This document shows, one piece after another, positions 31,159-35,016 of a stretch of 64,000 nucleotides of DNA. Within the stretch, counting starts at the first letter, position 1; each line of letters begins with the position of its first letter. Source of the DNA: an uncultured Elusimicrobia bacterium (lineage in GTDB: Bacteria; Elusimicrobiota; Elusimicrobia; F11); NCBI GenBank assembly GCA_964405835.1, contig CAYOPN010000002.1, positions 24,571 through 88,570 of the forward strand. The letters run 5' to 3'. The position numbers were made by a program, and so were the translations under genes. Below the pieces are notes generated by a model. That model did not search any database, had not been told where the DNA came from, and saw only the letters and a program-made list of their open reading frames with translations.

Positions 31159-32318
31159 AATTTTTTCAGGCCGTCTTTGACCGCTTGCACGCAAGTGTCC
31201 AGTTCCCCTGCGGTCAGCCCAACGCTGGAGGGAAGGCTGATGCCGCGCGCATACAGGTCTTCCGAGACTTCAAGCGGACCCGCGTCGCAATCGCGAAACG
31301 GCGGCAACCCCTGCAGCGGATGCCAGAAAGGACGGGCCTGGATGTTGCTCTCACGAAGCGACGCCAAGAACGCCTTGCGTTTCTCCAAGGTCGTGCGCTC
31401 CGGCAACAGGAACGTGTACAGCCAAAACGTGGCGTCGGTGCCGGCGGGTGTGGGCATCAGCGTGATGCCCGGAAAATCCTTGAGCGCGGCCGCGTAGGTC
31501 TGCGCGTTTTTCTTTTTAATGCGGACGAACTCGCCCAACGATTCCATTTGGGCCAAGCCGAGCGCCGCTTGCAAACTGGTCAACCGGTAATTGAACCCCA
31601 CTTCCTTGTGATAACTCTCGGTCTCATCGTCCTTGGATTGCGTCGACCAATACCGGATGCGGTCCGCGCGCGCCTTATCGGCGGTCACCACCGCGCCGCC
31701 GCCGCCCGTCGTCACAATTTTATTGCCGTTAAAACTGAAAACACCGGCGTCGCCGAAGATCCCGGCCGCTTTCCCTTGATATTTCACGCCCATGGCTTCG
31801 GCCGCGTCTTCCACCACGGCGAGGTTGTGCCGCCGCGCCACCGGAACAATTTTGTCCATCGCGCAGGCAAGCCCGAGAATGTGGACCGGCATTACCGCGC
31901 GCACCGTGCGGCCGGATTTCTTGTGGATGCAGCGTCCGTCTTTCTGTTGCGTGTTCGCTTCCAGGTATTTTTCGAATTTCACGGGGTCCATCTGCCAAGC
32001 GGAGGGTTCGGCGTCGATGAAGATCGGGTCCGCGCCGCAGTGCCGGATGGCGTTCGCGGAAGCGACAAAGGTCAGATTGGAGACAACGACAAGATCGCCC
32101 GGCCCGACCCCGACAGAACGCAACGCCAAATGCAGCGCCGCGGTACCGCTGGCCAGCGCGACCGCATGCGGAACACCGGCGGTCTTCGCGATAATATTTT
32201 CAAACTCGGTAACGAACGGGCCGGCGGACGAAACCCAGCCGGAATCCAAACATTTCTTCAGGTAAGTCCAGGACGATTCGGTGAGCGTGGGGACGGAAAG
32301 CGGGATGTTAGACGGCAT
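31155..32318 (-). CDS. DegT/DnrJ/EryC1/StrS-family PLP-dependent sugar aminotransferase (LegC-like by context)
   Basis: Start at the internal ATG 32318 (MPSNIPLSVP). GWVSSAGPFVTEFE, ALASGTAALHLAL, FSFNGNKIVTTGGGG (PLP lysine region). Sits next to the LegB-like dehydratase. Confidence 0.8.
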   Translation of the reverse strand: MPSNIPLSVPTLTESSWTYLKKCLDSGWVSSAGPFVTEFENIIAKTAGVPHAVALASGTAALHLALRSVGVGPGDLVVVSNLTFVASANAIRHCGADPIFIDAEPSAWQMDPVKFEKYLEANTQQKDGRCIHKKSGRTVRAVMPVHILGLACAMDKIVPVARRHNLAVVEDAAEAMGVKYQGKAAGIFGDAGVFSFNGNKIVTTGGGGAVVTADKARADRIRYWSTQSKDDETESYHKEVGFNYRLTSLQAALGLAQMESLGEFVRIKKKNAQTYAAALKDFPGITLMPTPAGTDATFWLYTFLLPERTTLEKRKAFLASLRESNIQARPFWHPLQGLPPFRDCDAGPLEVSEDLYARGISLPSSVGLTAGELDTCVQAVKDGLKKF

Positions 32319-33291
32319 ACCTATCGACACGGTAAATGTCTTTGTGGCGGCGGACCCACTCGATGGTTTTGGACAATCCTTCTTCAAGACCCACGCGCGG
32401 CGCCCACTTCAAAATCTTCTTGGCTTTTTTGACGTCGGCCAGCAACCGTTCCACTTCGCTTTTTGCGGGGCGCAAACGCTGCTTATCGGCCTCAAATTGA
32501 ACGGGGCGTCCCATAAGTTTGCCGATCAGTTTGGCCAAGTCTCCGATCCGGATTTCGCGACCGGTGCCGAGATTGATGACCTCGCCGACTGCCTTTGGTG
32601 CTTCAGCTGCGCGGATGAATCCTTCCACGGTATTGGAAACAAAATTCAGGTCGCGGGTCGGATGCAGATTGCCAAGCTTTAATTTTTGACCGGACAAACA
32701 TTGCGCGATGATGGTTGGGATCACGGCGCGCGCCGATTGACGCGGACCGAATGTATTGAACGGCCGCACCGTCACGACCGGCAGGTTAAACGACAGAAAA
32801 AACGATTCGGCGATTTTATCCCCAGCGATTTTTGTGGCGGAATAGGGTGATTGCGCTTGCAGCGGATGTTCTTCGGTAATCGGCACGAAGCGAGCGGTGC
32901 CGTACGCTTCGCTCGTGGAAGTATGAATGACCTTTTCGATGTCCCAGCGCCGGGCCGATTGCAGCACGTTTAAGGTCCCCTGAACATTGGTCTTCACATA
33001 CGAATCGGGCGCTATGTAGGAGTAGGGGATCCCGATCAACGCCGCCAAATGAAAAACAATATCAGCGTTCTTAACAGCCTGGTCGACAAAACTCTGGTCT
33101 TGAACGTCCCCCGAAATAACGTGAATGTCTTTTTTCCGGGCCGACGAATCCATCCACCCCCACGACCCATCCCCGCGGTAATGAACGAACGCCGTGGTTT
33201 TGGCGCCGAGCTCCACCAATTTTTCGGTGAGGTGGCTTCCAATAAATCCGCCCGCCCCCGTCACCAACACTTTTTTACCAGCCCATTTCAT
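32308..33291 (-). CDS. Extended-SDR NDP-sugar 4,6-dehydratase (LegB-like by context)
   Basis: KVLVTGAGGFIGSHL, STSEAYG, YSATK, and the C-terminal [19 protein letters not shown]. The substrate (GDP- versus UDP-GlcNAc) cannot be read from sequence. Confidence 0.75.
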   Translation of the reverse strand: MKWAGKKVLVTGAGGFIGSHLTEKLVELGAKTTAFVHYRGDGSWGWMDSSARKKDIHVISGDVQDQSFVDQAVKNADIVFHLAALIGIPYSYIAPDSYVKTNVQGTLNVLQSARRWDIEKVIHTSTSEAYGTARFVPITEEHPLQAQSPYSATKIAGDKIAESFFLSFNLPVVTVRPFNTFGPRQSARAVIPTIIAQCLSGQKLKLGNLHPTRDLNFVSNTVEGFIRAAEAPKAVGEVINLGTGREIRIGDLAKLIGKLMGRPVQFEADKQRLRPAKSEVERLLADVKKAKKILKWAPRVGLEEGLSKTIEWVRRHKDIYRVDRYAV

Positions 33292-33335
33292 GGGCGTGTC
33301 TCTATCAAAAATTGGCTACGGCGGCTATCAGCTAA

Positions 33336-33362
33336 CTTGAGGTCACAAACTGTGACCTCAAG
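33336..33362. repeat. Perfect hairpin/palindrome P1: CTTGAGGTCACA-aac-TGTGACCTCAAG
   Basis: 12-nt arms with a 3-nt loop, ending 3 nt before the ORF6N stop codon (33366-33368), with the T5 run that follows on the plus strand extending into that stop codon. Its 11-nt arm core is identical to palindrome P2 inside the ORF6N gene. Confidence 0.9.
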
Positions 33363-33365
33363 TTT

Positions 33366-33905
33366 TTAGTCTGGTCGAACAAATCCACGGACATCCACCT
33401 GTTTTTCTGGTTTATCCAGTATTTTTTGGATCGTCGCAAAAACTTCGGTGAACCTACCGTCGTATTTCTCTTCCAGCTTTCTAATTTTCTCCTGCAAGTC
33501 CCGATGCGAGGTCAAATACTCACGCAACTTGGTAAATGCGCGCATTATCTGAATATTTACCTCGATCGCCGTTTTGCTTCGCAGGACCGATGAAAGCATG
33601 GCAATGCCATTTTCGGTAAAGGCATAAGGGGCATAGCGGCGTCCCCCTCTCCCTTCGTTTGAGGTCACAATTTGTGACCTCAAAGAAACTTGTTCATCCT
33701 CAGTTAGTTGGAACATAAAATCAGCTGGAAATCGCTCCTGGTTTCTATTTACGGATTGGATGAGAACCTTAACTTTGACGCCATACAGCTGAGCCAAATG
33801 GCTATCCAGCATAATTCTATTGCCTCGAAACAGGAATATTTTATCTTCTATGGCGCGAATTTGAAGTTGAGTATTGTTCACGTGTGTCTCCTTTTTTGAA
33901 GGCAT
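33366..33905 (-). CDS. ORF6N-domain (KilA-N-like DNA-binding) protein
   Basis: IRAIEDKIFLFRGNRIMLDSHLAQLYGV...FPADFMFQLTEDE...LRSQIVTS...GGRRYAPYAFTENGIAMLSSVLRS is the conserved ORF6N pattern. The gene is flanked by the two largest minus-strand intergenic gaps apart from 49858-49984. GC is visibly lower than its neighbours. Confidence 0.8.
   Translation of the reverse strand: MPSKKETHVNNTQLQIRAIEDKIFLFRGNRIMLDSHLAQLYGVKVKVLIQSVNRNQERFPADFMFQLTEDEQVSLRSQIVTSNEGRGGRRYAPYAFTENGIAMLSSVLRSKTAIEVNIQIMRAFTKLREYLTSHRDLQEKIRKLEEKYDGRFTEVFATIQKILDKPEKQVDVRGFVRPD
33658..33684. repeat. Perfect palindrome P2 inside the ORF6N coding sequence: TTTGAGGTCACA-att-TGTGACCTCAAA
   Basis: 12-nt arms with a 3-nt loop. 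It encodes the conserved LRSQIVTS peptide on the minus strand. Core TTGAGGTCACA/TGTGACCTCAA is identical to P1. Confidence 0.9.
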
Positions 33906-33942
33906 TCCGTGAAGGGGTGCGGATTTTACGTCGGAGGGGTTC

Positions 33943-35016
33943 TTAAGGTTTGCTGGCCCAGCTTTCTACTAAACGTTGGGCCTCTTCGTAGTTTTGGTGG
34001 TGGCCGATGTCGATCCACTCTTCCATGATGGGGAAGCTGACCACGGTCTTTTTCTGGGCGATGAAGCGTTTGATGAGGTCTGGCATGTCGCAGTGCTCGC
34101 CTTTCTTTTGGATGGGGCCCAGCGCGGATGGTTCGATCAAGTAAATTCCGGCATTCACGAACAGGTTGTAGACAGGTTTCTCGATCACATCGGTGATGAC
34201 TTCCTCGTTGCAATTAATCACGCCGTAAGGAACTTTCACGTCGTATTTACGGACCGCCACCGTGCAGTCGGCGTTGTGTTCTTTGTGAAAAGCGATCATG
34301 GAACGGAAATCCATATCGGTCAAAATATCGCCGTTCATGACGAGCAGCGTATCGTCGGTTTTCTCCAGCAACCCCAGCGCGCCCGCCGTTCCCAGCGGCT
34401 CTTCTTCATCCAAATAGGAGACCTGGATGTCGAATTTCTTTCCGTCTTGGAAATGGTTCACGATTTCTTCGCTCTTGTGATGGGTGGTGATCTTCACTTT
34501 GCGGATTCCGGATTTTCGCAGGTTGCGAATGATGATTTCCATGAGCGGCTGGTCGCCAACGGGCAACATGGGTTTGGGGGTGTTCATCGTCAAAGGCATC
34601 AAACGTTTTCCCTGGCCGCCCGCCATCAGCACGGCCTGAACGGAGAGATCGCGGCCGGGCATTAAATCGTCCAGACACAACAAGTCAAGGACCCGGCCTG
34701 CTTCATCGACGATCGGAAGATGGAGAACGTTGTACTTGTTGAGTATTTTCAAGTAGGCCTCGGGCGGTTGCCCCGGGAGGGCCGTGATGGGTTTCGCGAA
34801 CCGGGTCCCCTGCTTTTTGGTGAGCAAGGTTGAAATGGGAAGCGCGAAATTCATGTGGTCAAGAACGGCCCGGCGCATGTCGCCGTCGGTCACGGTTCCC
34901 AATAAAATCCGTTGGGCGTCGGCCACCAAAACAATTCCCCACTGCGTGCGGTCGAGAACTTGAAACGCATCGCTGATGGGTTTGTCCGGAGCAATTAATA
35001 TGGGGTCCAAATTCAC
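33943..35016 (-). CDS. CBS-pair + sugar-phosphate nucleotidyltransferase (PtmE-like)
   Basis: N-terminal CBS pair (GIVLVADAQRILLGTVTDGDMRR...LPIVDEAGRVLD), then AVLMAGGQGKRLMPLTMNTPKPMLPVG...LGTAGALGLL (NTP_transferase). Same architecture as the GlcN-1-P guanylyltransferase of the Campylobacter legionaminic acid route. GTG start in a GTGA overlap at 35013. Confidence 0.8.
   Translation of the reverse strand: MNLDPILIAPDKPISDAFQVLDRTQWGIVLVADAQRILLGTVTDGDMRRAVLDHMNFALPISTLLTKKQGTRFAKPITALPGQPPEAYLKILNKYNVLHLPIVDEAGRVLDLLCLDDLMPGRDLSVQAVLMAGGQGKRLMPLTMNTPKPMLPVGDQPLMEIIIRNLRKSGIRKVKITTHHKSEEIVNHFQDGKKFDIQVSYLDEEEPLGTAGALGLLEKTDDTLLVMNGDILTDMDFRSMIAFHKEHNADCTVAVRKYDVKVPYGVINCNEEVITDVIEKPVYNLFVNAGIYLIEPSALGPIQKKGEHCDMPDLIKRFIAQKKTVVSFPIMEEWIDIGHHQNYEEAQRLVESWASKP

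Follow-up and report, generated by a model that had tools for sequence, protein, structure and literature searches.

Binding sites that lie inside the gene of the very protein that reads them have been described before: parS is located within parB/spo0J, and the origin iterons of the lambda O protein are located in gene O. Auxiliary operators are also known in or beyond coding sequence, paired with a main operator, as in the case of lacO2 in lacZ and galOI in galE. Palindromes of a different kind are the Rickettsia palindromic elements, which insert in frame into coding genes, and the REP-type palindromes, which are intergenic. In the parts of the literature on ORF6N, PDC-S05 or KilA-N that were available to us, no description of a palindrome was found. 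The ORF6N-domain gene reported here contains one perfect palindrome (P2) in its coding sequence and is followed by a second, non-coding palindrome (P1) directly past its stop codon.

Similar to parS/parB and lambda O, the putative cognate site of the ORF6N protein lies within its own coding sequence and further copies lie outside; dissimilar from both, the ORF6N site occupies an invariant codon position across tens of thousands of gene clusters from many phyla, dictates which amino acids a loop contains, and has variable bases that co-evolve with a residue of the predicted recognition helix; no role in partition or replication is indicated. The likeness to lacO2 and galOI consists of a palindromic, repressor-type site in transcribed DNA with a possible second site a few hundred bp away; however, no promoter-proximal operator is present in the window (i.e., the whole 64-kb stretch of DNA that was analysed), the two ORF6N sites lie on either side of the 3' half of the regulator's gene, and looping between P1 and P2 is unsupported by helical phasing. 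As with Rickettsia palindromic elements and REP sequences, translation of the palindrome into peptide is tolerated in a permissive loop, and both solo and tandem in-frame copies exist, but ORF6N palindromes are restricted to a single gene family and the DNA around it, keep a fixed position, and co-vary with the protein. With regard to dispersal of the REP or MITE type, the window holds two copies only. Finally, P1 resembles a Rho-independent terminator in its GC-containing stem and plus-strand T run; unlike a terminator, this pattern has the wrong orientation for all genes of the region.

The window holds a single ORF6N gene (33366..33884, minus strand), which was taken from the list of open reading frames and assigned with Pfam PF10543 (E = 4.4e-32) and PADLOC PDC-S05. 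Counted from a GTG start, with AAGGAG nine bases ahead of it, the product is 172 amino acids long; a longer alternative starting at an ATG at 33905 is possible, and the TAA stop occupies 33366-33368. The protein is a member of the PF10543 family, scoring 110.7 bits (cut-off 27.8) over profile positions 2-86 of 86, and it matched the PDC-S05 profiles of PADLOC with E = 2.7e-54 and 1.4e-53, at full length on a 177-position profile. The ORF6N family is a candidate phage-defence family (PADLOC PDC-S05). In a preprint (10.1101/2024.09.26.614923), one PDC-S05 representative is reported to have lowered the plating of T7 and T5 on E. coli B about 1000-fold, and the protective representative is described there with a RhuM domain. 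The upstream neighbour of the ORF6N gene is a CBS-domain nucleotidyl-transferase gene of a sugar operon (33943..35016, minus strand; Pfam NTP_transferase and CBS), and the downstream neighbour is an NAD-dependent epimerase/dehydratase gene (32308..33291, minus strand; assigned by Pfam and gene-order comparison). The minus-strand genes between 29023 and 36509, which include a DegT-type aminotransferase, the epimerase, the CBS nucleotidyl-transferase and HisH/HisF-like genes, resemble an operon for the biosynthesis of nonulosonic acid or another surface sugar, and this operon is broken up by the ORF6N gene and its flanks.

P2 is a perfect 27-nt odd palindrome inside the ORF6N coding sequence (33658..33684, centre 33671). 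On the plus strand it reads TTTGAGGTCACAA-T-TTGTGACCTCAAA, with arms of 13 nt and 13/13 pairs, and on the minus strand it is translated as TTG AGG TCA CAA ATT GTG ACC TCA, which is LRSQIVTS (L68-S75). The core of P1 occupies 33336-33362; its arms extend to 33334..33364 (centre 33349) and form 14 perfect pairs around a 3-nt centre. The gap between P1 and the ORF6N stop codon is 3 nt, or 1 nt with the extended arms, and the ATG of the epimerase gene follows 42-58 nt downstream of P1. Bases k2-k12, counted outward from the centre, are identical in P1 and P2, and the two centres are 322 nt apart, which corresponds to 30.7 helical turns. A prior description made from the letters alone (hereafter, the sequence-only reading) had reported two palindromes with an identical 11-nt core, about 320 nt apart, the one ending 3 nt past the stop codon, and this description holds. 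The pattern TTGAGGTCACA-N3-TGTGACCTCAA occurs twice in the 64-kb window, where none was expected (100 shuffles), and 677 kb of unrelated control loci contained no palindromes of the P1/P2 type. Of all variants in the family, the shared 11-nt core is seen most often, yet just 20 of 175 internal sites have it on both arms. The GG/CA specificity bases, too, are common to P1 and P2; in its outer part, however, P1 has bases (AACTT...AAGTT) that are typical of an "NLRSQxVTSS" subfamily and unlike those of the subfamily to which P2 belongs, so P1 is not necessarily a local copy of P2.

In three runs of a single freshwater sample, contigs spanned both sides of P1 as well as the junction with the upstream gene, and no differences were seen; because the contigs are uninterrupted and unchanged over P1 and the junction, the arrangement is not an obvious assembly artefact. 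Contig word depth over 33323-33369 was 24-45 in three of four runs (5.8 in the fourth), with flanks at about 3-5. The source of this spike is the presence of the same 29-31-mer within ORF6N genes of many other organisms of the metagenome, and a shared word of this kind constitutes a risk of assembly error at such palindromes.

The inner 9+9 bases of the palindrome recurred in no fewer than 120 genome contigs, spread over very many phyla. About 70% of the listed matches are ORF6N genes, often in reversed orientation, and the remainder are upstream or solo copies. An unbiased sample was then formed by 80 genome loci chosen by the flanking peptides FPxDFMFQ and PYAFTEQG alone. At least 10 of 13 complementary pairs were present in 76 of the 77 genes with a recognisable motif region in this motif-independent sample, and in each of these the embedded palindrome has its centre on the first codon position of one particular residue, 210 nt from the start of the profile. 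Complementarity averaged 12.1 of 13 pairs, compared to 5.1 expected from synonymous resampling with each gene's own codon usage; per position, it ranged from 0.74 to 1.0 over k1-k13 and fell to the chance level by k16. Codon choice at the site was equally pronounced when compared to the same codons elsewhere in the same genes: GTG for Val (100% vs 30%), TTT for Phe (100% vs 52%), ATT for Ile (97% vs 36%), CAA for Gln (93% vs 41%), and TCA for Ser (85-94% vs 16%). The sequence-only reading had argued that the symmetry needs specific synonymous codons and is not accidental, and had proposed codon usage in homologues of LRSQIVTS as the check; the near-complete retention of the palindrome and the uniform Val and Gln codons answer that check in its favour.

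Furthermore, changes in one arm are compensated in the opposite arm, even where the amino acids are altered. The residue pair S...V is encoded with TCA in the 5' arm and TGA in the 3' arm, C...G with TGC and GCA, F...G with TTC and GAA, Y...G with TAC and GTA, and S...A with TCG and CGA. Since the amino acids shift with the arms, the peptide follows the DNA and not the reverse. Going by these comparisons of codons and arms, P2 is this gene's copy of a site, TTGArrTnnCAA-N-TTGnnAyyTCAA, that is near-universal in ORF6N genes and is maintained as nucleotides. The LRSQxVTS "protein motif" of the Pfam family is largely a translated DNA element, which matters for annotation and for the reading of selection in coding sequence.

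Some ORF6N genes carry in-frame tandem duplicates of the palindrome and its peptide, 60-85 nt apart (L001 at 7733 and 7808, L016 at 192 and 258, L034, L068), and one (P0051) contains four tandem repeats of the palindrome. These in-frame tandems fit a permissive loop that is disordered in the structural model (residues 73-80). An apparent non-coding RNA, suggested by stop codons around RSQxVTS, was rejected because the wrong strand had been read: RSQxVTS is encoded by either strand of the palindrome.

The AlphaFold2 model of the ORF6N protein (mean pLDDT 73) consists of two strands, a helix-turn-helix (27-34 and 38-47), a helix at 62-71, the disordered loop at 73-80, and a long helix at 104-140; the P2-encoded peptide forms the end of helix 62-71 plus the loop. 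A sequence search found no relative among solved structures, and Foldseek returned weak matches (E >= 0.19) to Ski/Dachshund and MarR-type winged helices. In a first alignment of 312 distinct ORF6N family members, the columns sharing most information with the palindrome's variable bases were located entirely in helix 38-47 (mutual information 0.83 and 0.64 bits, compared to at most 0.28 elsewhere), with peaks at alignment columns 37, 38, and 41. The predicted recognition helix, residues 38-47 including K38 and Q42, is encoded at 33744..33773 (minus strand), as delimited by the AlphaFold2 model and by covariation.

The analysis was repeated with 149 representatives of 50%-identity clusters, drawn from an exhaustive search that returned 45,147 ORF6N clusters at 50% identity (E up to 0.001). 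In this set, residue 42 shared 1.12 bits with the class of bases k4/5, compared to 0.38 for the best column outside the helix. Residue 42 was Q in 99 of 101 members of the S/V class (k4/5 = CA), E in 12 of 14 of the S/A class (CG), R in all 9 of the C/G class (GC) and all 3 of the Y/G class (AC), and K or R in all 8 of the F/G class (TC), while residue 38 (K or R) tracks bases k7/8. With the helix and motif columns excluded from tree construction, phylogenetically independent pairs differing in site class showed 13.8 changes of residue 42 in the same direction as the site and none in the opposite direction (median p 1.2e-4), with p of about 1 for control columns and about 0.04 for residue 38. 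Mainly because of this covariation between residue 42 and the bases, we prefer the reading in which the palindrome, as duplex DNA, is most likely the binding site of the ORF6N protein that the gene itself encodes. The recognition helix of the helix-turn-helix would read the site, with K38 corresponding to GG and Q42 to CA in this gene. The palindromes have perfect two-fold symmetry, and the model offers a helix-turn-helix (27-47) and the long helix 104-140, features consistent with a protein that would act as a dimer on a two-fold symmetric site.

An improbable alternative is that P1 and P2 act as nucleic-acid hairpins and not as duplex sites, in which case P1 would be an intercistronic stem-loop stabilising the upstream mRNA or an antisense terminator, and P2 a structure in mRNA or single-stranded DNA. 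The predicted sense RNA stems are indeed stable (-24.7 kcal/mol for P1, z -3.4; -19.3 kcal/mol for P2, z -2.9), complementarity is maintained at the variable arm positions, and the plus strand of P1 has a terminator-like 14-bp stem followed by T5, which is the complement of the stop codon plus AAA. However, the sense (minus) strand continues past P1 with UUAGCUG, which contains no U-tract of an intrinsic terminator, and no gene on the plus strand ends at P1; it had been stated correctly that the T5 follows on the plus strand only and could at most terminate antisense transcription. The mismatches point in the same direction: 129 distinct internal sites contained 88, divided into 18 sense-strand G-T, 37 A-C, and 33 others, and the few sense-strand G-T mismatches argue against a selected mRNA hairpin. 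The CAA-N-TTG centre is conserved as well, including the wobble T of the central codon (ATT, TTT, ACT, TCT) and the wobble A of Gln, and non-coding copies that were found by their outer arms alone have CAA-N-TTG centres too. Because this centre is kept though k1 is unpairable and k2 would close a strained 3-nt loop, it indicates a duplex rather than a stem. The arm variation, moreover, follows a residue of the protein's helix, and Rfam contained no family matching the palindromes.

It is more improbable still that the palindromes are functionless and kept perfect by mutation, through template switching from arm to arm during replication. Compensated double changes and perfect solo copies would fit such a process, but it leaves unexplained why the site sits at one position in about 99% of genes across phyla, why its untemplated centre is conserved, why it co-varies with a residue about 30 codons away, and why upstream copies cluster at -41 and -86.

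In about 35 loci from many phyla, the genes for the CBS nucleotidyl-transferase and the epimerase are separated by 0-70 nt, and none of these loci has an ORF6N gene between the two; in the window, the distance is 651 nt. The closest ORF6N relative is 73% identical in protein sequence and lies in an unrelated genomic context. Homology to this relative by blastn starts at 33946, right past the stop codon of the upstream gene, and stops within the divergent C-terminus. The 5' end of the inserted unit is a 58-nt leader (33885..33942, minus strand; placed by blastn and alignment) that shares about 90% identity with its counterpart in the closest relative, compared to only about 75% for the coding sequence, and may be a promoter or a 5' untranslated region. 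The leader, which was compared with L281 (3030-3090) and L284, contains the repeat ACCCCTCC / CACCCCTTC. The adjacency of the gene pair elsewhere, combined with homology from 33946 onward, indicates a compact inserted cassette with P1 at its 3' edge: on the evidence of gene order and alignment, a cassette of about 610 nt, comprising the 58-nt leader, the gene and, last, P1, is inserted between normally adjacent genes of a sugar-nucleotide operon. No empty site or orthologous locus was found in the searches, in which the best epimerase relative was 68% identical and the best ORF6N relative 73%.

The position of P1 bears on the proposal, made in the sequence-only reading, that the palindromes are recombination or insertion sites defining a mobile unit. 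Its location at the 3' edge of the cassette agrees with this proposal; against it, the 5' edge carries no palindrome, and the closest relatives do not have P1. The GTTAGCT that follows P1 is one base short of the integron core GTTRRRY and lacks the paired site of an attC element, and joints of a P1-P2 rearrangement were not seen in the Logan contigs, which are of low depth and drop rare variants.

The frequency of extra copies was determined in a census of 163 motif-independent loci (180 genes), which contained 175 internal palindrome sites. Copies within 150 nt past the stop codon were rare, with 6 palindromes in 5 of 168 genes (about 3%), and the three closest ORF6N relatives have no extra palindrome; P1 is therefore not a conserved part of the unit. 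Upstream copies numbered 28 across the 180 genes (163 with enough upstream DNA), about 13% of genes, and clustered at -36 to -45 (about -41) and around -86 from the ORF6N profile start. The upstream palindromes often occur as tandem pairs 36-55 nt apart, in an arrangement similar to promoter operators (L201-L363, e.g., L289, L307, L336, L348, and L349). In the window, no palindrome is present upstream of the ORF6N gene, so that a promoter-adjacent operator is lacking there, and no sigma-70-like promoter overlaps P1.

The bases of P1 match the class predicted from K38 and Q42 of this protein. Across other loci, non-coding copies matched the predicted class of the adjacent protein in only 22 of 36 cases, which is about the chance level. 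P1 is perfect although no coding constraint acts on it, and the background is zero in the control DNA, which counts for reading it as a cognate site. Of the two palindromes, the firmer case is P2, an instance of a putative binding-site palindrome that is encoded by the gene itself and co-evolves with the protein. We consider the chances about evenly balanced that P1 is a second cognate site at the edge of the cassette, possibly a roadblock or operator toward the downstream operon gene. The ORF6N protein would then occupy both P2 and P1, bracketing the 3' half of its own gene, and protein bound at P1, shortly ahead of the epimerase gene, would exert a feedback roadblock or operator effect on transcription reading through into the operon. 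The comparisons establish conservation of the site as nucleotides, compensatory change, covariation of site and protein, and the insertion, and we infer binding of the protein to DNA, bridging by dimers, and any regulatory effect of P1. Looping between the two sites is unsupported, as a separation of 30.7 turns is out of phase, and the distances between upstream and internal sites in other loci showed no helical periodicity. Of the roles that had been suggested for the two palindromes, operator sites for the ORF6N protein itself is the best supported, with the base-helix covariation and the predicted bases of P1 speaking for it, and with the out-of-phase spacing and the rarity of downstream copies speaking against it.

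P1 could, however, be a functionless leftover, either the junction or by-product of a recombination event or the orphaned upstream operator of a neighbouring ORF6N gene that has been lost, and we regard this as unlikely. The exact location of P1 at the 3' edge of the inserted segment, its outer arms of the other subfamily type, and its absence from the closest relatives are in keeping with a leftover. Truncated ORF6N remnants with palindromes also exist elsewhere: L287 (about 1330-1430) has FPEDFMFQ, a stop codon, and then palindromes, and L027 (5095-5235) has an open reading frame that jumps from IRGK to LRSQFATL, fragments which show that the family does undergo deletions with an end at or near the palindrome. 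Solo palindromes are common in addition, with at least 27 listed that have no ORF6N gene within 8 kb. On the other hand, a neutral relic should decay, but P1 is perfect over 14 pairs, and the 5' edge lacks a partner site. ORF6N coding sequence has left no trace beside P1, where the best local score of the flanks against it was 17, compared to a shuffled median of 18; as the flanks show no similarity beyond chance, P1 is not the visible remnant of the deleted second ORF6N copy that had been suggested. "YPPYA"-like codons seen by eye at P1, which had been taken as a candidate remnant of a second gene, were rejected in the same scored comparison with shuffles. Palindromes abutting the stop codon also recur independently in L308, L090, and L058, whose C-termini are unrelated, and in L308 the palindrome likewise lies about 40 nt ahead of the next gene. 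Rearranged forms were not seen in the same low-depth contigs, which drop rare variants. A second cognate site remains our preferred reading of P1.

More tentatively, and with somewhat less confidence than an even chance would warrant, the ORF6N genes may be viewed as self-contained pairs of a protein and its own site, each gene placing its site in a permissive loop of its product, that diversify together under a code of Q-CA, E-CG, R-GC/CC/AC, and K-TC, with the extra copies (P1 and those at -41/-86) wiring candidate defence genes to themselves, to each other, or to host operons. If this were true, the approximately 45,000 ORF6N clusters would constitute a naturally occurring set of DNA-binding helices, each matched to its target site, useful for learning rules of recognition and the control of candidate phage-defence genes. 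With a site at the 3' edge of a cassette that lies in a surface-sugar operon, expression of the downstream sugar genes could be coupled to the ORF6N protein.

Site types that do not match the adjacent gene were seen repeatedly among the upstream copies. CG-type palindromes (GGTCGCAA-N-TTGCGACC) are over-represented upstream of Q42 genes, for which CA is predicted (L030, L043, L082, L112, L203, and L271), and CA-type sites lie upstream of E-type genes (L014 and L044); such mismatches may reflect cross-regulation between ORF6N paralogues. Among the perfect solo palindromes (e.g., L056 at 1741, L008 at 4529, L018 at 3379, L010 at 1682 and 1722, and L113), some are located between convergent genes, and others are located upstream of small, HicA-like genes resembling toxin-antitoxin systems or of a KptA-like gene.
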